Source of the DNA: Candidatus Enterousia sp.
GTDB taxonomy: Bacteria > Pseudomonadota > Alphaproteobacteria > Rs-D84
NCBI GenBank assembly: GCA_045546195.1
Contig: JAZQCH010000001.1
Span: 231,489 to 295,488 of the forward strand
Length of the DNA stretch: 64,000 bases
Reading direction: 5' to 3'
The notes beneath the pieces were generated by a model, which saw nothing but the letters and a program-made list of their open reading frames with translations, was not told the DNA's origin and ran no database searches. Shown here piece by piece: positions 3,655-59,131 of the stretch; position 1 is the stretch's first letter, and each line of letters begins with the position of its first letter. A program made the translations under genes and the position numbers.

Positions 3655-4017
3655 TTATTCCTTTTTGCCGATAATTGCCCAAATGAGTGCGCTGATTGTA
3701 AAGAAAAGCCAGCCACCAAAAATACCACCCAAAGCAGAGAGTTGGTACACTGTATATTTTCTCTTAATATTTCGTTTCCAAGCAATAAACATTGGAGTAT
3801 ATGTCATGATTATTATAATTGGCACAAATATCAAAGAACGGACAAAAGATACTTTAAGGGCAATTTCTTGTGCGCTAGAATAAGCATATTCGGCATTTAA
3901 GGCGGTTTGTCTAATATCGTCATAAGTCATCGCAAATGTAAATATTATACCAATGGTGATTGCCCAAAGAAACATCCTTAATGGAAACTTATTGTTATTA
4001 AGTTGGTTTGTTTCCAT
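3655..4017 (-). CDS. small hydrophobic membrane protein (~120 aa, ~3 predicted TM)
   Basis: ORF track 3655..4134 trimmed to 'METNQLNNNKFPLRMFLWAITIGIIFTF' start preceded by AGGAGAG Shine-Dalgarno (revcomp of 4024-4030); hydrophobic stretches; forms tight operon with 3321..3650. Confidence 0.5.
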   Translation of the reverse strand: METNQLNNNKFPLRMFLWAITIGIIFTFAMTYDDIRQTALNAEYAYSSAQEIALKVSFVRSLIFVPIIIIMTYTPMFIAWKRNIKRKYTVYQLSALGGIFGGWLFFTISALIWAIIGKKE

Positions 4018-6013: not shown

Positions 6014-7351
6014 ATGATTCAATATAAATTTGGCAAAAGTTATTATATACAAAGCACAGGCAATGTTTTCCATGAACGCGAACTAATCGTTGTTCACGCT
6101 GAATCCAGCCGTGGTCGCCATGCGTACAGTTATGACCAGTCGCGTGGCACCGCCCGTGATTATCAAAACAGGGCCAATGATTTGGGCCTGGCCGAAGAAT
6201 ATATTGCGGAAAAACTGGCCCAGGTATCATTTCGTGCGGACGAAACACCAGTTGCGGCACATGAAAAAATAAGTAAATTTATCGATTCTAAAAATCAGTA
6301 CGCTGAATTTGATGCCTCAATCGCCGCGGATATAAACGCCCGCGAAGATTATCATGTGCGTCTGGAAAACGCCGAATACTATAAACAGGCACTGTTGGCA
6401 TTGACAAAATTTGAACCTGCGGGCGTCCAGGCTATTCTGACTGGCACAAAATATCCATTTTCCATGGCGGCGCATGATTTTGCCCGTGGCATTTCGCATC
6501 GTCAAATTAAACAAGATATTGCCAAATTGTCATCCCCGGTTAAGAAACGCCTGCGTGAATTTGCGGCGCAACGCAATTATATCCTGTCGGACGAAGCATG
6601 TAATACCGAAGCGCGCGACTATATCGACACTGTCAGGCGCAGTTATCCGCTGATTAACCATTCGCCCGAGCGCGTAGAATACATCATCGCCCGTGCGGTT
6701 GATGATATGTTGCGTGATGCGTTGGAATACAAATACTACAAACGCACTGGCAATATGGCGATATTTGTCGGTCCATATGGTCAACGCACCGCAGATTCTT
6801 TATCTGATACAGAATTGCTGGATGTTGTTGGTTGGAACGCGATGCAAAATTATGGCAATGCATTACAGGTCATCCGTCGCATGAATCAAATTATCGCCGC
6901 TGAACGCGACATAACGCCATTTATGACCGAATTGAACAAGACCCTGGGCGACGGCTATGCCAACCAAGAAATAATTCGTATGATGTTTGAAACATTGTCG
7001 CCACACTATAATAAATTCAAGCACAATAAAAAGGTCACAGAATTTATCGGTCGTCTGCGCTTTTATGTCAAAGACGCGCGCCTGGCACAGCACATGGCGG
7101 AAACATTTGGCCTAAAAGAAGCCCCAAAACCAAACAAGGACAAGGCGCGCGCCAAACTGTTGGCCGCCGCCGACCGTATTGTGTCGGGCGACAATGTGTC
7201 GGGTGTTGTCGTTATTGACCGTGAATTACAGTTGGTACGTGATTTTGCGGTCGAACCCACCCCGGAAACATTTGGTCGGATTAAGAAATCTATAAAACCA
7301 ACCGCGGTCCAGGCTGAAATCCTGCGCAAATATGGTCCGCGCCAAAAATAA
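6014..7351 (+). CDS. hypothetical cytoplasmic protein (445 aa), no recognisable domain
   Basis: ORF with extended -10 'tggtataat' and GGGGGAA SD upstream; no signal peptide or TM; adjacent to tRNA-Thr. Confidence 0.55.
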   Translation: MIQYKFGKSYYIQSTGNVFHERELIVVHAESSRGRHAYSYDQSRGTARDYQNRANDLGLAEEYIAEKLAQVSFRADETPVAAHEKISKFIDSKNQYAEFDASIAADINAREDYHVRLENAEYYKQALLALTKFEPAGVQAILTGTKYPFSMAAHDFARGISHRQIKQDIAKLSSPVKKRLREFAAQRNYILSDEACNTEARDYIDTVRRSYPLINHSPERVEYIIARAVDDMLRDALEYKYYKRTGNMAIFVGPYGQRTADSLSDTELLDVVGWNAMQNYGNALQVIRRMNQIIAAERDITPFMTELNKTLGDGYANQEIIRMMFETLSPHYNKFKHNKKVTEFIGRLRFYVKDARLAQHMAETFGLKEAPKPNKDKARAKLLAAADRIVSGDNVSGVVVIDRELQLVRDFAVEPTPETFGRIKKSIKPTAVQAEILRKYGPRQK

Positions 7352-13186: not shown

Positions 13187-14725
13187 ATGTCTTTTGTATC
13201 GATGCCTCGTCAGGATTTATTGCTTGCGATTGATTCGTTGGCCCAGGAAAAGCAGATTGACCGTGAAATTGTTTTTGAATCGCTGGAAATTGCTGTTGCC
13301 AAGATTGCCAAACACAAATACGGCGAAGAATTTAATATTGTCGCCGATATTGATCGCAAGAACGGTGCGATACATGTAAAACGTTTGTTTGATGTTATCG
13401 AATCCCCAGAATCTGTGGGCGAAGAATACGATCCAAACACTATGTTGACGGTATCCCAGGCAAAAAAGTATGCCAAGAATCCGGTTGTCGGTGATGTGGT
13501 CGCAGATGCGCTGCCTGAACCTGAATTTGGTCGTATGGCATTTCAGACTGCGAAACAGATTATGACAACGCGCGTTCGCGACGCGGAAAAGGGTCGTCAG
13601 TTCGAAGAATTCAAAGACAACATCGGCGACATCGTCAGCGGTATTGTAAAGCGCATCGAATTCGGCAGTGTTTATGTCGATATCAACGGCAAAGCCGAAG
13701 GTTATATCAAAGGCACCGAATTGATCCCAGGCGAACGCCTGAATGTTGGCGACCGTGTCCGCGCCTTGATTATGGATGTTGCGCGTTCAAATACGGGCCC
13801 TCAGATTTTCCTGACGCGTACACATCCGATGTTCATGGAAAAACTGTTTGTCCAGGAAGTGCCTGAAATCTACGAAGGTATTATTAAAATCAAATCCGTT
13901 GCGCGTGCGCCGGGTTCACATGCGAAGATTGCGGTTGAAACGGCGGACCCATCTATTGACGCCGTTGGTATGACTGTTGGGATTAAGGGTACCCGTATCC
14001 AGCCTGTTATCAACGAATGTCATGGTGAAAAGATTGACGTTATTCTGTATTCCGAAGACCCAGCCGTATTCATTGTTAACGCGATGCAACCGGCCAAGGT
14101 CGCAAAAATCATCGTTGACGAAGATACACGCAGCGCGGCCGTCGTTGTTAACGAAGACCAGCAATCATTGGCGATTGGTCGCCGTGGCCAGAACGTTCGC
14201 CTGGCGTCCCAGTTGACCGGCTGGAACATCGATGTTATGAACGAAGCCGAAGAACAAGAACGCCGTGCCAAGGAATTCAAGGAAAAAACAGAACTGTTTA
14301 TCGGCGGGTTGGATGTTGATGAAATGATTGCCCAACTGCTGATTACCGAAGGGTTCCGCACAATCGAAGAAATCGCATTTGTTGACATTTCCGAACTGGA
14401 AAGCATCGAAGGCTTTAATCCAGAATTGGCGGCTGAATTACAGAAACGTGCCAAAGACTATCTGGAACGCGTTGAACGCGACTATATTGATGCGGGTCAC
14501 AAATTGGGCATGTCCGACGACCTGTTGACATTTGACTTTATTAAACGTCCAACAATCATGAAACTGGGCGAATCTGGCATTAAATCATTGGATGATTTGG
14601 CGGATTTGGCGACCGATGAATTGGTTGAAATCCTGGGCGAAGATACAATGTCATCCCGTTTGGCGGGCCGCGTTATTATGAAGGCGCGTGAACTGGCATA
14701 CGGCATAACAAAAGATAACGAATAA
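13187..14725 (+). CDS. nusA: transcription termination/antitermination factor NusA
   Basis: 512 aa; N-terminal NusA domain, S1 and KH regions, C-terminal acidic repeats. Confidence 0.95.
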   Translation: MSFVSMPRQDLLLAIDSLAQEKQIDREIVFESLEIAVAKIAKHKYGEEFNIVADIDRKNGAIHVKRLFDVIESPESVGEEYDPNTMLTVSQAKKYAKNPVVGDVVADALPEPEFGRMAFQTAKQIMTTRVRDAEKGRQFEEFKDNIGDIVSGIVKRIEFGSVYVDINGKAEGYIKGTELIPGERLNVGDRVRALIMDVARSNTGPQIFLTRTHPMFMEKLFVQEVPEIYEGIIKIKSVARAPGSHAKIAVETADPSIDAVGMTVGIKGTRIQPVINECHGEKIDVILYSEDPAVFIVNAMQPAKVAKIIVDEDTRSAAVVVNEDQQSLAIGRRGQNVRLASQLTGWNIDVMNEAEEQERRAKEFKEKTELFIGGLDVDEMIAQLLITEGFRTIEEIAFVDISELESIEGFNPELAAELQKRAKDYLERVERDYIDAGHKLGMSDDLLTFDFIKRPTIMKLGESGIKSLDDLADLATDELVEILGEDTMSSRLAGRVIMKARELAYGITKDNE

Positions 14726-54290: not shown

Positions 54291-55241
54291 TTGATTATGA
54301 AGTATTCTGAACTTGGTCTGGTTAATACCAAAGATATGTTTGCGGACGCGATTGCGCGCAAATATGCGGTGCCTGCGTTTAATTTTTATAATATGGAAAC
54401 ATTGATGGCGATACTGAACGCGTCGCGCATGACGCACAGCCCGGTTATCCTGGCGGTATCTGAATCCGCGTTAAAGTATATGGGCCCAGATATGTTAACC
54501 GGTATGATTATGGGGGCAAATTTGTCGCCCGATGATGGTGTTGCGTTACATTTGGACCACGGTTCAACTGTGGAATCGTGCGTGCGCGCGATTGAATTGG
54601 GTTTTTCATCCGTCATGATTGATGCCAGCAAACTGCCATTTGACGAAAATGTTGTGTCAACAAAACGTGTCGCAGAAATCGCACACAAACACAATGTCAC
54701 AGTCGAAGCGGAACTGGGCGTCCTGGCGGGAATCGAAGACGAAAATACATTTTCTGAAAATTCCAGTTATACAAATCCATCGGATGTCGAACGTTTTGTT
54801 CGTGCCACGGGCATTGATTCATTGGCAATTGCCATCGGCACCAGTCACGGCGCGTACAAGCGTCGCCGCGATGACGAAGAATTGCGTTTTGATATTTTGG
54901 CGGATGTGGCAACGCGCCTGCCGGGGTTTCCGTTGGTTTTACACGGTGCGTCAAACATCCCGCAAAAGTTGGTGACGCAAATCAACGAATTTGGTGGTAA
55001 ATTATCTGGTGCGCGTGGCATTGATGTTGCGCAACTGCGTCGTGCGACCCAGATGAATGTCTGTAAAATTAACGTGGACAGTGATTTGCGCCTGGGCTTT
55101 ATTGCGGCAACGCGTCGCACATTGGCTGAAAACCCCCAGGGTTTTAATCCGCGTGAATTTTTATCGTCTGCGATAACGACAATGACCCAGATATGTACCG
55201 ATGAAATTCGCGACATCATGGGGTCGGACAATAAATTATAA
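54291..55241 (+). CDS. fba: class II fructose-bisphosphate aldolase
   Basis: 316 aa; 'VPAFNF', 'LHLDHG', 'SVMIDAS', 'LHGASN' motifs. Confidence 0.85.
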   Translation: MIMKYSELGLVNTKDMFADAIARKYAVPAFNFYNMETLMAILNASRMTHSPVILAVSESALKYMGPDMLTGMIMGANLSPDDGVALHLDHGSTVESCVRAIELGFSSVMIDASKLPFDENVVSTKRVAEIAHKHNVTVEAELGVLAGIEDENTFSENSSYTNPSDVERFVRATGIDSLAIAIGTSHGAYKRRRDDEELRFDILADVATRLPGFPLVLHGASNIPQKLVTQINEFGGKLSGARGIDVAQLRRATQMNVCKINVDSDLRLGFIAATRRTLAENPQGFNPREFLSSAITTMTQICTDEIRDIMGSDNKL

Positions 55242-55274
55242 TCAAAAAAATCCCCGCGTTCTGCGGGGTTTTGT

Positions 55275-56489
55275 TTACATACGCGGACCGCGCATAGGGT
55301 TCATGCTTTTTTGCTTGTTATTGGTTGATGCCATCCCTATGCGTCCGACAATAACCTTGTCCCCCATTTGAATTTCGTCTGAAATGATTTCTGTTTCAGT
55401 CGCCGTGGACAGACCCTTGGAATACGGCACCATAACCACATCATCATCACGCAGTATTGCCAGATGTGACACAGGTGTTGCCCCATTAACAATTTCAGCA
55501 TCTAAAAAGTTGGCGAAACTGCGAACCAAGAACGCCGAATTTGCCGCACGCCATACATTTTCTTTTTCTGAAATTATAATCGTCACAAACGCGGTCATAC
55601 CCGGCATCAACCGCAGGTCTGTATTATCGACATCAATCACAACTGTGTACACAACAACGTTCGATGTTGTTGTTGGTGACAGTCGAATTTGCCGTACCAC
55701 GCCATCAAATGTTTCGGTTGGATATGCGTCAACGGTAAAGGTCACTGGTTGACCTTCTTGGATAACGCCAATATCGGCTTCGGACACAGCGGTTTCAATT
55801 TGCATCTTGGTTAAATCTTCGGCGATTTCAAACAGGTCTGGTGTCTGGAACGATGCGGCAACGGTCTGGCCTACGTCCACCTTGCGCGAAATAACGGTGC
55901 CGTCAACTGGCGATGTTATTGTCGCATACCCCAGGTTAGTCACCGCGCGGTCATATGTTGATTGTGCGCGTTTTACCGATTGTTCGGCCTGTTCGTATTG
56001 TGTTTGCGATTGTTCCATTTCTGCGCGTGCGATAAAGCCTTCGCTATACAACGATTTATTTCTTTCGTATTCGCTTTTTGCGAAATTTCGTTGGGACATC
56101 GCGCTGTCCAGTGATGCTTTGGACTCGTCAACAGTTGCCTGTAAAACAGACGGTTCAATCGTTAACAGGATGTCACCCTTTTTGACCTTGGTATTAAAGT
56201 CGACATACAGATTATCAATCGTCCCCGATACCTGGGAACCGACATTGACGGTGTTCACAGGCTGAATTTCGCCAGTTGCGGTCACCACCTGGCGCAGGTC
56301 GCCCCGTGTAATATTCATGGTGATAAACTCGCCGGGCTTTTTAGACGTGCCACCAAAAATCCACCATGCCCCAATTGCGACCGCCACCACCAATAAAATC
56401 CACCATTTTTTGCGCCACATCCACCCGAACACGCGACGGATAAATGATTTTTTTGGCTGCGCCTGCTTTGTTGTATTATTTTTCTTCAT
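55275..56489 (-). CDS. HlyD/MacA-family periplasmic adaptor subunit
   Basis: 404 aa; N-terminal TM, coiled-coil hairpin (QSQTQYEQAEQSVKRAQSTYDRA), beta-barrel and MP domains; overlaps tolC-like gene stop. Confidence 0.8.
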   Translation of the reverse strand: MKKNNTTKQAQPKKSFIRRVFGWMWRKKWWILLVVAVAIGAWWIFGGTSKKPGEFITMNITRGDLRQVVTATGEIQPVNTVNVGSQVSGTIDNLYVDFNTKVKKGDILLTIEPSVLQATVDESKASLDSAMSQRNFAKSEYERNKSLYSEGFIARAEMEQSQTQYEQAEQSVKRAQSTYDRAVTNLGYATITSPVDGTVISRKVDVGQTVAASFQTPDLFEIAEDLTKMQIETAVSEADIGVIQEGQPVTFTVDAYPTETFDGVVRQIRLSPTTTSNVVVYTVVIDVDNTDLRLMPGMTAFVTIIISEKENVWRAANSAFLVRSFANFLDAEIVNGATPVSHLAILRDDDVVMVPYSKGLSTATETEIISDEIQMGDKVIVGRIGMASTNNKQKSMNPMRGPRM

Positions 56490-57813
56490 CTTCCACTTCC
56501 TTGTCTAATTCTGTTTTTATTTCACCAACTGCCAATGCGACCGCCGCGCGTTTGGTAAACAGGTCGTATTTTGCGGCATTGTTTTGTTTTTCTGCGCTGA
56601 CTAATTCAGATTGCGCCGTTTGCCAATCCAACATAGTCGCGCGTCCAACCTTGTACATGCCGGCGGTCACGCGTTCCGATTCGGTCGCGGATTTCAATAA
56701 TGTTTCCGTTTGTTTTAATACGGTTTGGGCGGTTTTATAGTTATGATATGCCGTAAATATATCCAACGTTGCATTGTCATTTGTTTGTCGTTCGATTTCG
56801 ACTGCGCGGTCATAATTTGCCGCCGCTGCGCGCGCGTTATACAGATTGGCAAATCCTGCGAACAATGGCATAGACGCGCGTATGCCAATACTGCCACTGA
56901 CTTTGTCAGACCCTGCGCCAAATGTTTCGGACGGTGTGTCGTTCCACGACAGCGACCCCGACGCAGAAATCGACGGCAGGTTGCTTAAAAACACGCTGTT
57001 TCGTCTGTGCCATGCGGCATCTTTGTTCGCGGTTGCGCGCAACAAATCCGGACGTGTTTTTTGTGCCTGTTCGAATAATTCATCCAGACTTTTTGTTTCC
57101 TGGGGTGTGCCAATGGTTGATGGCAAATCTGCGATTTCAATTTCTTGGTCGGCTGGGAACGACAGTTTGCTAAGCAGTGTTCCCTTGGCGATTTCGCGAT
57201 TATTTTTTGCGCGTTCTAAATCCAGGTCGCGACTGGCCAATGTTGTGTCTGCCTTTAACACATCTGCCTTGGCAACGGAACCGGCTTTGAACTTTTTATT
57301 TGCTGTATCGCGTGCGGTCTGTGCGACGGTGCGCAACATTTCGGCTGATTTGACATCCGCATTTGCGTTCAATAACGCATAGTACGACCCGATAATGCTG
57401 TACACATAGTTTTGTACACTTTCGTCATAGTCAAACCCCGCCGCGCGCCACGCATAGATTGATTGTTTAACATCTGAAAAACGTTTTCCAAAATCGAATA
57501 TTAAATAAGATGCCGACAACGACGCCCCATACGACCAATCGCCCCATTGTTCATTACGATATGGCAACGACGCGTTTGCCGACGCATTAACACTGGGCAG
57601 ATAATCGGCATAACCTGCATTTTTAGAAAAACGCGCAGATTCATATGCCATATATGCCGCCGCCGTCTGTGGGTTGCGACACAGTCCCAATTCAATCACC
57701 TGGGGCAGGCTTAGTTTCCCCGCCGGCACATCCATGCGTGTCATACAGTTATCTGTGGTGGCAAACGCACACATTGGCATCAACCCAAACATAAAAAACG
57801 ACAGTTTTCTCAT
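56476..57813 (-). CDS. TolC-family outer membrane protein
   Basis: 445 aa; signal peptide 'MRKLSFFMFGLMPMCAFA', two OEP repeats. Confidence 0.8.
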   Translation of the reverse strand: MRKLSFFMFGLMPMCAFATTDNCMTRMDVPAGKLSLPQVIELGLCRNPQTAAAYMAYESARFSKNAGYADYLPSVNASANASLPYRNEQWGDWSYGASLSASYLIFDFGKRFSDVKQSIYAWRAAGFDYDESVQNYVYSIIGSYYALLNANADVKSAEMLRTVAQTARDTANKKFKAGSVAKADVLKADTTLASRDLDLERAKNNREIAKGTLLSKLSFPADQEIEIADLPSTIGTPQETKSLDELFEQAQKTRPDLLRATANKDAAWHRRNSVFLSNLPSISASGSLSWNDTPSETFGAGSDKVSGSIGIRASMPLFAGFANLYNARAAAANYDRAVEIERQTNDNATLDIFTAYHNYKTAQTVLKQTETLLKSATESERVTAGMYKVGRATMLDWQTAQSELVSAEKQNNAAKYDLFTKRAAVALAVGEIKTELDKEVEDEEK

Positions 57814-57907
57814 AAAAATTCTCTCTCGTGTTAATATTCTTTCAAATTATACAATTTTTCTATTGAATTACAATTTTTTTTTGCTTAATATGCTTTCACA
57901 AAGTTCA

Positions 57908-57981
57908 GGCCTGGTGGCAGAGTGGTTATGCAGAGGACTGCAAATCCTTGGATGCCGGTTCGATTCCGACCCAGGCCTCCA
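57908..57981 (+). tRNA. tRNA-Cys (anticodon GCA)
   Basis: acceptor ggcctgg/ccaggcc, anticodon loop ctGCAaa, T-arm ggttcgattcc, encoded CCA. Confidence 0.85.
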
Positions 57982-57985
57982 CAAA

Positions 57986-58013
57986 TAAAAAAGAGCCCCT
58001 GGGGGGCTTTTTT
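57986..58013 (+). terminator. rho-independent terminator after tRNA-Cys
   Basis: 'aaaaagagcccctggggggctttttt'. Confidence 0.7.
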
Positions 58014-58156
58014 GGTGCCTGGGGTGGAATTGAACCGGCCCGGTTCGCATGCGCGCCCAGGTTTGTCGCGGGGCATAACAAACCCGCCACGCGACAAACC
58101 ACCGCAAGCAGTGAGTCAAGTTGCGTTTAGCAACGGTCGCCAACGGCGATGCGAAC

Positions 58157-58186
58157 ATTCCGACCCAGGCCTCCACAAATAAAAAA
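58157..58186 (+). repeat. 30-bp direct repeat of tRNA-Cys 3' end (second copy)
   Basis: 'attccgacccaggcctccacaaataaaaaa' identical to 57963-57992; followed by its own terminator 'caccccatgtgggtgatttttt'. Confidence 0.8.
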
Positions 58187-58237
58187 ACACCCCATGTGGG
58201 TGATTTTTTATGTAAGTTTAAGGAAGGGAATATATTC

Positions 58238-59131
58238 ATGACATCCGAATTTGAAACATTGTTGGAATCTATGCGCCCCGCGTCCCCGCGCACAGTTGCC
58301 TTGGCGTGCGCCACCGACCCAAACGCATTGTCATCTGTGTGCGTTGCGCACAAAATGGGTTTTATAGATGCCGTTTTATACGGCGATGAAACCGATATAA
58401 AAAATGTCGCATCCAAACACAATCTGGATATATCTGATTTTAAAATCGTCCACTGTGATGATGAATTGTCGGCGGCAAATGCGGCGGTTTGTGCCGTGCG
58501 CGACGGTCGCGCCGATATTTTGATGAAGGGCCTTATCCACACCGCAGACATTTTGCGTGCGGTGCTTAATCGTGAAACGGGCATTCGTGGCGATGGTATT
58601 TTATCGCATGTGTCGGTGTTGTATTCCCCATCGCGCCATCAGCGGTTATTTCTAACTGATATCGCAATGGTTATGTACCCCAGTTTAGAACAAAAGGTTG
58701 ACTTGATAAATAACGCGGTATCTTTTGCGCGCCATATGGGGGTGGCCACGCCGCGTGTTGCGCCCCTGTGTGCGGTTGAAACATTAAATCCGAAAATGCC
58801 GGCAACCGTTGACGCGGATGCGCTGCGCCAACTGAACATGCGTGGCGAACTGGCAAATTGTATTGTGTCGGGGCCGATATCATTTGATATCGCAGTGTCA
58901 AAGTCCGCCGCCGCGACCAAGGGATATGCTGGCCCTATCCAGGGTGACGCAGACATATTGCTGTTCCATAATATCGAAGCAGGCAACAATACTATTAAGG
59001 CAATGGTACAATTCGGCGATTGGATATTTGGTGGTGTGATTGTTGGTGCACGCGCGCCGATTGTTATAAATTCGCGTTCTGATTCAGACACATCGAAACT
59101 GTTTTCAATTGCGTGCGCGTGTACAATGTAA
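58238..59131 (+). CDS. phosphate acetyl/butyryl-transferase family protein
   Basis: start trimmed to MTSEFETL with AGGAAGGG SD; ~297 aa PTA/PTB-fold. Confidence 0.65.
   Translation: MTSEFETLLESMRPASPRTVALACATDPNALSSVCVAHKMGFIDAVLYGDETDIKNVASKHNLDISDFKIVHCDDELSAANAAVCAVRDGRADILMKGLIHTADILRAVLNRETGIRGDGILSHVSVLYSPSRHQRLFLTDIAMVMYPSLEQKVDLINNAVSFARHMGVATPRVAPLCAVETLNPKMPATVDADALRQLNMRGELANCIVSGPISFDIAVSKSAAATKGYAGPIQGDADILLFHNIEAGNNTIKAMVQFGDWIFGGVIVGARAPIVINSRSDSDTSKLFSIACACTM

Follow-up and report, generated by a model that had tools for sequence, protein, structure and literature searches.

INTRODUCTION

The rtT repeats of the Escherichia coli tyrT operon first came to light in the late 1970s, and Egan and Landy (1978), Rossi et al. 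(1981), and Bosl and Kersten (1991) are said to have described 178-bp repeats distal to tyrT-tyrV. To our knowledge, these repeats have so far been treated as an enterobacterial oddity whose function is unclear. One 178-bp unit yields the 171-nt rtT RNA (rttR) (PMC3318445; bioRxiv 10.1101/2024.07.17.603846; both citing Bosl and Kersten 1991). Here, we describe a locus in a 64,000-nt stretch of a Candidatus Enterousia sp. assembly (GCA_045546195.1, contig JAZQCH010000001.1, positions 231,489 to 295,488; hereafter "the window"), where a tRNA-Cys gene is directly followed, on the same (+) strand, by an element of ~160 nt (58014–58175) that ends in a second copy of the tRNA's own 3′ end. We consider that the whole 194-nt unit (57982–58175) probably, if by no means assuredly, belongs to the tRNA-Cys transcription unit as its RtT-like distal module. 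The obscure rtT kind itself is already known; what is new here is the RtT-like build on tRNA-Cys.

In the E. coli K-12 tyrT-tyrV-rttR region, the 19-mer AATCCTTCCCCCACCACCA (tRNA positions A58–A76) occurs six times, at spacings of 175, 119, 178, 178, and 178 nt. Each unit opens with GGGGAAGGAT-GAGAA(C/G)CTTC, an inverted T-arm, and proceeds through a loop, AAGGTTCGA (a direct copy of positions 50–58), and a 67-nt core to the 19-mer, which gives the build GAGAACCTTC-GACTA-AAGGTTCGA, then the core, then AATCC. Three distal units and one spacer unit are present in K-12, and E. coli units score 133–137 bits with the Rfam RtT model (RF00391). The annotated rttR begins 7 nt past tyrV and stops at the CCA that closes the first 19-mer.

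RESULTS

A palindromic duplication of the T-arm region with an inserted core

The Enterousia element duplicates the T-arm region of the tRNA as a palindrome, and its core is inserted at T-loop position 57/58. The features of the locus and the predicted helices (P1 to P6), in their order along the DNA, are as follows:

57863–57891, + strand: putative tRNA-Cys promoter, read from the sequence (TTGAAT, 17 nt, TATAAT-like TAATAT).
57908–57981, + strand: tRNA-Cys (GCA) with encoded CCA (ARAGORN; Rfam tRNA, 60.1 bits).
57963–57992, + strand: repeat copy 1, tRNA-Cys A58–A76 (19 nt) plus an A-rich trailer (11 nt); exact 30-mer.
57989–58013, + strand: terminator-like hairpin T1, with A-tract, GAGCCCC/GGGGCUU stem, and U run (−15.2 kcal/mol).
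58017–58030, + strand: 5′ strand of P1, an imperfect inverted copy of tRNA positions 58–71 (end of the T-loop and the 3′ strands of the T-stem and inner acceptor).
58032–58046, + strand: hairpin P2, GAACCGG-C-CCGGTTC, an inverted plus a direct copy of the T-stem 5′ strand and TTC.
58047–58112, + strand: helix P3 (58047–58056 with 58104–58112), showing compensatory changes and enclosing the variable hairpin P4 (58060–58100).
58113–58119, + strand: single-stranded junction GAGUCAA, invariant in nine variants.
58120–58134, + strand: hairpin P5, GUUGC-GUUUA-GCAAC.
58136–58150, + strand: hairpin P6, GUCGCC-AAC-GGCGAU.
58151–58156, + strand: junction GCGAAC, complementary to GUUCGC at 58044–58049, a possible alternative pairing read from the sequence.
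58157–58186, + strand: repeat copy 2, 19 nt equal to A58–A76 (the 3′ strand of P1 plus UCCA) and the identical 11-nt trailer.
58179–58211, + strand: terminator-like hairpin T2, a G+C hairpin and U run (−12.3 kcal/mol).

The inverted copy that forms the 5′ arm is extended by 58032–58038 into the T-stem 5′ strand. It is followed by the direct copy CCGGTTCG at 58040–58047 (tRNA positions 50–57), so that the build reads GAACCGG-C-CCGGTTCG, then the core, then ATTCC. The core measures 109 nt and sits exactly at T-loop position 57/58, with A58 resuming at 58157 and the copy continuing to CCA. Guanine plus cytosine (G+C) content is 62% in the element and 59–63% in 100-nt windows of the segment, compared with 46.7% for the 64-kb window.

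The first-pass annotation of this DNA had reported that the end of tRNA-Cys and its trailer recur downstream, each copy with its own terminator, and both statements hold. The 30-mer ATTCCGACCCAGGCCTCCACAAATAAAAAA has exactly two copies, both on the + strand, where shuffled sequences lead one to expect none even at three mismatches, and each copy leads into a G+C hairpin with a U run. The tRNA-derived part alone, the 19-mer ATTCCGACCCAGGCCTCCA, likewise occurs in the window only at 57963–57981 and 58157–58175; it starts at A58, inside the T-loop, and closes on A76, the last base of the encoded CCA. The spacer between the copies, given earlier as 165 bp, is 164 nt (194 nt from start to start), and the pairing proposed between the 5′ and 3′ ends is real and longer than claimed, joining 58017–58030 to 58157–58170 over 14 positions.

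T1 is the centre of a 96-nt palindrome (57950–58045; −60.2 kcal/mol, z −7.3) that links the tRNA 3′ end, as inverted repeat I1, with the 5′ arm of the element. Because this palindrome can fold as one hairpin, we regard the microRNA-like Rfam matches to it as spurious. A consensus terminator scan called T2 on each of the two strands and T1 solely on the − strand. The tRNA-Cys sequence is 100% identical in three related loci (L059, L002, and L041; fetched loci are numbered with an L), which also keep the putative promoter stretch at 57863–57891. This promoter scored slightly under the cutoff of a consensus scan, and the element would be driven from it through read-through.

Distribution and copy number among relatives

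A query with the pta-like protein yielded 60 loci from metagenome-assembled genomes (MAGs) of Candidatus Enterousia-like gut Alphaproteobacteria, together with two distant loci from other lineages, and ~70 further loci were reached via the divergently transcribed TolC-family gene and pta variants. From nine distinct Enterousia-like variants we built a model, R1, and ran it on the window and 89 fetched loci (706 kb in total). R1 matched behind tRNA-Cys, at 133–195 bits, in the window and in L059, L074–L079, L089, L002, L041, L039, L083, L094, and L109, and it found no copy elsewhere in these sequences. Among the loci obtained with the pta-like protein, only L059, L002, L041, and L039 carry tRNA-Cys and the element upstream of the pta-like gene.

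The element is followed by one of three downstream contexts, namely the pta-like gene, pheT, or recF. The two diverged copies belong to the latter two contexts: L094 has pheT next (TolC 85% identical), and in L109 the copy lies between tRNA-Cys and recF (TolC 83%). Many loci lack the element altogether; in L093, L096–L102, L106, and L112–L114, tRNA-Cys is followed by a single terminator, which in L093 resembles T2 of the window, and the element is also absent from L121–L138, where the block of tRNA-Cys, TolC, and membrane-fusion protein (MFP) genes is inverted. Tandem units occur as well, since L039 holds at least two (one full, one cut by the contig start) against one in the window. Unequal crossing-over between the repeats yields just such copy numbers (0, 1, and at least 2). 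A further state was found in L067–L069 and L082 (reverse strand, upstream of TolC), where an internal deletion fuses ...GAACCGGCCCGG to GCCCCCACTAAAA..., with the entire core gone and the 5′ arm and half of P2 retained.

Conservation of a predicted RNA fold on the + strand

Outside one variable hairpin, the element is more conserved than the third codon positions of the neighboring genes. Between the window and L002/L041, third-codon identity is 48–56% in tolC and pta and 73–78% in ppdk, while the element is 96–98% identical over 58101–58156, 89% over 58015–58059, and 66% in the variable hairpin. Outside this hairpin, it is thus 89–100% identical to relatives with a third-codon identity of 48–78%.

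The variation that does occur follows the predicted helices. RNAalifold proposed 49 pairs in seven helices, comprising P1 (from the 5′ and 3′ arms), P2, P3, P4 (a basal stem and a variable inner stem), P5, and P6, with 96.1% of all helix cells paired and 90.5% in the 14 pairs of P1. Five pairs are changed on both sides, compared with 1.5 upon column shuffling (0 of 500 shuffles reached 5) and two or fewer in slid controls. Compensatory G-C to A-U changes are found in P3 and at the base of P4, and the inner stem of P4 appears in the variants GCGGG/CCCGC, GCGAC/GUCGC, and GUGGC/GCCAC. In the diverged copies of L094 and L109, the P2 stem is retained with a loop of variable length, and the P6 stem is longer in L109 (UCGCCC-AGU-GGGCGA).

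The one-sided changes bear on the strand. Almost all of them are C-G to U.G or A-U to G.U when read on the + strand, and the differences in the 5′ arm of P1 are mostly of this kind. Across the variants, 423 of 440 pairing cells are paired on the + strand, 34 of them as G.U, compared with 390 of 440 on the − strand, with one would-be G.U. An RNA from the minus strand is disfavored by this count, although single-sequence energies do not separate the strands. From these comparisons, we conclude that selection acts on a + strand RNA fold or, less likely, on a fold of single-stranded DNA.

Comparison with the E. coli RtT unit

The locus resembles the tyrT region in its layout. Here as there, the unit shares its strand with a tRNA gene that immediately precedes it (tRNA-Cys here; tyrV, then rttR, in E. 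coli) and ends in the exact last 19 nt of that tRNA (A58–A76 with CCA), after which comes the repeated trailer. It opens with an inverted T-arm and inner acceptor strand, which form the first (closing) helix of the Rfam consensus, and continues into a direct copy of the T-stem 5′ strand plus TTCG, with the core at T-loop position 57/58. Both cores are G+C-rich and carry a GUUGC...GCAAC hairpin, which in E. coli has the form GUUGCC-N3-GGCAAC at the site equivalent to P5; a GUUGC-N5-GCAAC-GG hairpin is the sole core feature common to the two. The Rfam consensus pairs UUCG with CGAA, comparable to the possible pairing of 58151–58156 with 58044–58049 in the window. Finally, both units vary in copy number between strains and are of obscure function, and like the E. 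coli unit the one described here may be repeatable in tandem (at least two units in L039, one in the window).

The two also differ in several respects. The tRNA is Cys in an uncultured gut alphaproteobacterium here and Tyr in an enterobacterium there, the core has 109 nt rather than 67 nt with an extra P3/P4 domain of ~60 nt, and each unit here has an intrinsic-terminator hairpin where the E. coli units have an unstructured AT-rich leader. The tpr open reading frame of E. coli, which encodes a protamine-like protein, lies within the rtT core (L139, 1588–1677, − strand); in the window element, inspection by eye from the ATG at 58049, short of a systematic check, turned up just one very short frame and none that was obviously Tpr-like.

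Model searches gave weak matches in both directions. RF00391 aligned to the L094 copy at full length, on the correct strand, and in register at 23 bits (E = 0.018 in a 241-nt search, E = 2 for 26 kb; the gathering score is 45 bits). Conversely, R1 matched the spacer unit of E. coli with 18.7 bits (E = 1.5e-4) and aligned the three distal units in register with 3–6 bits.

Evidence that tempers the RtT-like reading

A number of observations weigh against this reading. The 23 bits for L094 are the best that RF00391 gave, below the gathering score, and the model did not match the copies in the window or L109 at E values up to 10. When the cores alone were aligned with the E. coli units, the scores were 14–18, compared with shuffle means of 14.5–16.5, and 117 to 671 of 1000 shuffles scored as high. 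Sequence homology from core to core is accordingly rejected as not significant in this shuffle test, and the cross-model scores are probably driven mostly by the shared T-arm consensus. By its threshold, the element lies outside RF00391, and common descent of the E. coli and Enterousia cores is at most a possibility.

The fold statistics are open to similar objections. The window copy by itself folds alike on both strands (−75.3 versus −75.5 kcal/mol), the G.U count is biased because the helix set was chosen on the + strand, and the covariation statistics are thin because there are only about four independent sequence types. As to expression, T1 is an efficient-looking intrinsic terminator directly preceding the element, unlike the E. 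coli rtT units, which have no such hairpin, and a consensus scan made no separate promoter of the element visible. The element is also dispensable: Many close relatives lack it, and one lineage carries it with an internal deletion.

Last, L094 has lost the acceptor-like outer portion of P1, and the second 19-mer of L109 is altered to ATTCCGACGACATGCCTCCA; a strict mimic of the tRNA acceptor is therefore not conserved. This also limits the suggestion, made in the first-pass annotation, of a small RNA with a tRNA-like 3′ end and an acceptor-like closing helix. The small RNA itself is favored by the conservation of the fold, the compensatory changes, the strand-specific G.U pairs, and the rtT build; what did not stand is the outer acceptor-like helix as a constant feature, which L094 and L109 do not keep.

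An att-site scar

The strongest rival, although weaker than the RtT-like reading and in our view unlikely, is that the repeats are the att-site scar of an integrative element that entered tRNA-Cys by a crossover in the T-loop. What remains would be a miniature non-autonomous remnant (resembling a cis-mobilizable element, CIME), with copy 1 as the 3′ end brought by the element (attL), copy 2 as the displaced original (attR), and a sequence conserved because it serves recombination in trans. The direct repeat indeed opens inside the T-loop and extends beyond the 3′ end, in the manner of tRNA-targeted integration sites. In the window, T1 differs from T2, and the latter is similar to the terminator resident at the empty site of L093. 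The patchy presence among close relatives and the tandem copies in L039 also agree with this proposal, and both have parallels in the presence/absence polymorphism and tandem arrays of islands and CIMEs that share a tRNA. The tRNA 3′ flank is moreover a hot spot of rearrangement, as seen in the inverted block of L121–L138 and in alternative junctions of L073 and L084, which carry the same TolC protein and single-base changes in the acceptor 3′ strand, and half of an identical tRNA-Cys is held as an attP-like site by unrelated high-GC phage contigs.

The content between the repeats, however, is not that of an island. In none of the carriers, which represent four sequence types, does the interval hold an integrase, any other gene, or differing cargo; compared with attL/attR-bounded islands and CIMEs, the insert is short (164 nt), gene-free, and both identical in content and structurally constrained among carriers, and an integrase was not found. 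The neighbors of the carriers are TolC, pta-like, recF, or pheT genes. In the 5′ arm and core there are compensatory and wobble changes of the RNA type, for which protein-binding att arms would have no need, and immediately to the left of copy 2 we do not find the T-stem 5′ half expected of an attR. In L002, L094, and L109, the repeat, including trailer and terminator, is homogenized within each genome and different between genomes, which fits concerted evolution in tandem better than import. The same odd build at E. coli tyrT is a transcribed repeat and no island. The element core is absent from viral contigs (core patterns gave 0 matches there), and a scan of JGI metagenomes with a core 19-mer gave four chance matches in unrelated high-GC DNA. 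The earlier notion of a scar or collapsed island remnant is hence unsupported as the main explanation, given the absence of mobility genes and variable cargo and a ~160-nt segment conserved across species at nearly the level of the tRNA. Its suggested searches point the same way: No distant attR partner or further 30-mer copy turned up within the 64-kb window, and between the repeats the carriers hold only the same ~160-nt element.

Among viral contigs, only two, both high-GC and unrelated, contain the 3′ half of a tRNA-Cys from the anticodon stem onward with an identical 3′ end (L119, ~6400–6520, − strand; L120, ~13980–14036, + strand). ARAGORN finds no full tRNA in either, and by their sequence these halves look like attP-type sites of phages of unrelated hosts.

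A by-product of replication or repair

We hold it to be improbable that the element is a functionless by-product, in which template switching at the terminator palindrome and the T-arm made the inverted and direct partial copies, and which owes its persistence to gene conversion with the tRNA gene and to homologous recombination that has lately spread it. Such an origin would account for the arrangement of tRNA 3′ end, T1, and 5′ arm as one long quasi-palindrome, with P2 as a second, and would be compatible with the dispensability of the element. Recombination across the locus is evident too, as L083 and L089 share one TolC protein but differ in their downstream haplotypes, and L002 and L041 are 97–100% identical from the tRNA to the pta start codon between flanking genes of ~72–80% identity. 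Yet the 109-nt core is not derived from the tRNA and is nonetheless the best-conserved part, the diverged copies of L094 and L109 retain all helices by compensatory changes in other genomic contexts, and variation is focused in loops and one hairpin, in the fashion of a structured RNA. The same multipart build is also seen in an independent lineage on a different tRNA, the tRNA-Tyr of E. coli. A by-product without function is hard to square with the conserved non-tRNA core and with this recurrence.

A degenerate tRNA and other identities

It is scarcely credible that the element represents a second, decayed tRNA or tmRNA-like gene, be it a pseudo-tRNA-Cys or a tRNA carrying a large insertion: It does end in A58–CCA of the tRNA, its 5′ strand pairs with the acceptor 3′ strand, and the direct CCGGTTCG and ATTCCGAC could form a T-arm interrupted at position 57/58, but ARAGORN calls no tRNA or tmRNA in it on either strand, the Rfam tRNA and tmRNA models give no match at E up to 10, it has no D-arm or anticodon arm, and the first acceptor pair is missing (U opposite C72) in a 5′ arm that is an inverted T-arm copy and not a tRNA 5′ half. 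The ARAGORN and Rfam runs (the latter over 57985–58215, in line with the covariance-model search that the first-pass annotation had proposed) exclude tRNA and tmRNA, including the permuted alphaproteobacterial form; in the 64-kb window, ARAGORN reports only the two true tRNAs.

Other Rfam families gave matches at chance level only, either miRNA-like ones from the palindrome or CrfA at 17 bits. Small ribozymes (hammerhead and others), a group II intron remnant after the terminator, a retron msr/msd, and ends of the IS200/IS605 insertion-sequence type or of a miniature inverted-repeat transposable element (MITE) were considered from the sequence and all rejected: Rfam gave no match, neither a reverse transcriptase nor a transposase lies nearby, and the copy is single in the window and in 89 fetched loci.

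Rearrangement and recombination around tRNA-Cys

The gene order of the window (54291–58237) runs fba (forward), MFP and TolC (both reverse), tRNA-Cys (forward), the element, and the pta-like gene (forward). In L121–L138, whose pta-like protein is 89% identical, the block of tRNA-Cys, TolC-family, and MFP genes is inverted and lacks the element, which gives fba (forward), tRNA-Cys (reverse), TolC, MFP, and pta (all forward).

Sequence identities differ along the region. Among the Enterousia-like MAGs, the pta-like protein is 66–91% identical, compared with 94–99% for the adjacent PPDK, and TolC is 91–95% identical in three loci that also carry the TolC gene; an exact look-up found no exact match on record for the pta-like protein of the window. 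An identical TolC protein (P0040) occurs with two element types and two pta alleles (L083 versus L089), which indicates a recombination breakpoint at tRNA-Cys.

Downstream of the element, the window (58187–58237) lacks ~38 nt (...TTGTTGCCATGGTATTGAAAATATTATATGCT...) that L059, L002, and L041 carry between terminator 2 and the start codon of the pta-like gene (~3936–4000). By its sequence, this stretch looks like the pta-like gene's own promoter; the window is without it, and its pta-like gene (58238–59131) may therefore rely on read-through from the tRNA unit.

At L073 (1–320) and L084 (1–295), both on the reverse strand upstream of TolC, tRNA-Cys differs by one base in the 3′ strand of its acceptor (CCCAAGCC or CCCTGGCC). 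Unrelated DNA follows the altered gene, AT-rich in L073 and with a recF-like open reading frame 12 nt after CCA in L084. These may be island or rearrangement junctions.

Most short metagenome contigs with the TolC gene stop within tRNA-Cys or within the repeat, and a few stop shortly upstream of the tRNA (L070–L072, L080–L082, L085–L092, L095, L103–L105, L107–L108, L110–L111, and L115–L118). Contig ends at this position are as expected, because repeats and strain heterogeneity would break assemblies.

DISCUSSION

How the unit would be made and used can be proposed by analogy with the E. coli tyrT operon. On the RtT-like reading, polymerase starting at the tRNA-Cys promoter would partly read through T1. 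The tRNA and the element carry an identical 30-nt cassette of 3′ end plus trailer, and 3′-maturation enzymes would for this reason be expected to act at both sites, with a cut in the A/U-rich trailer, trimming to CCA, and release of the segment between the two CCA ends. In the released RNA, P1 would close an acceptor/T-stem-like minihelix and leave the NCCA tail free. Since such a role has been proposed for rtT, the likeliest kind of role would be that of a tRNA-3′-end mimic or decoy toward tRNA-handling or starvation-sensing factors; this is our best guess, weakened by the loss of outer P1 in L094 and the altered 19-mer in L109. At the level of DNA, unequal crossing-over between the direct repeats of 30–65 nt makes the unit multiply, shrink back, or disappear, and these repeats also turn the tRNA 3′ flank into a rearrangement breakpoint.

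The element invites comparison with tRNA-like domains (tmRNA, the YrlA/Y-RNA module) and with small RNAs from operon spacers and trailers (3′ETS-leuZ). With these it shares an acceptor/T-stem-like helix with an NCCA tail and, by analogy, a likely processing of the tRNA operon transcript by the tRNA machinery. It differs from them in keeping no T-loop hairpin, in matching no covariance model, and in being a structured unit bounded by repeats and no simple piece of spacer.

For genome analysis, the locus is a caution that short repeats of tRNA fragments are not always island scars, and it accounts for the breaks of metagenome assemblies at tRNA-Cys in Enterousia-like genomes. For the rtT family, it supplies a second, independent example, on another tRNA in a distant, uncultured gut lineage and with comparative support for its fold, which suggests that it is the architecture, and not a particular sequence, that recurs. 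"tRNA-tail" RNAs may, our data suggest, be more widespread than known so far. A bolder generalization, which we offer tentatively and with the balance leaning against it, is that RtT-like modules form a general, unrecognized class of such RNAs, each with its core in the T-loop of a partial, palindromically duplicated 3′ end and always matching the neighboring tRNA. If true, the class would include Tyr ends in enterobacteria and Cys ends here; it would have originated either as an ancient family whose ends are re-tailored through gene conversion or by a directed process that targets the T-loop; and its members would act as tRNA-3′-end mimics, for instance toward starvation sensing, toward CCA-adding or trimming enzymes, or toward toxins and enzymes that are specific for the cognate tRNA. 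The question of rtT thereby becomes a comparative one, namely whether the ends of such modules track the adjacent tRNA across genomes.

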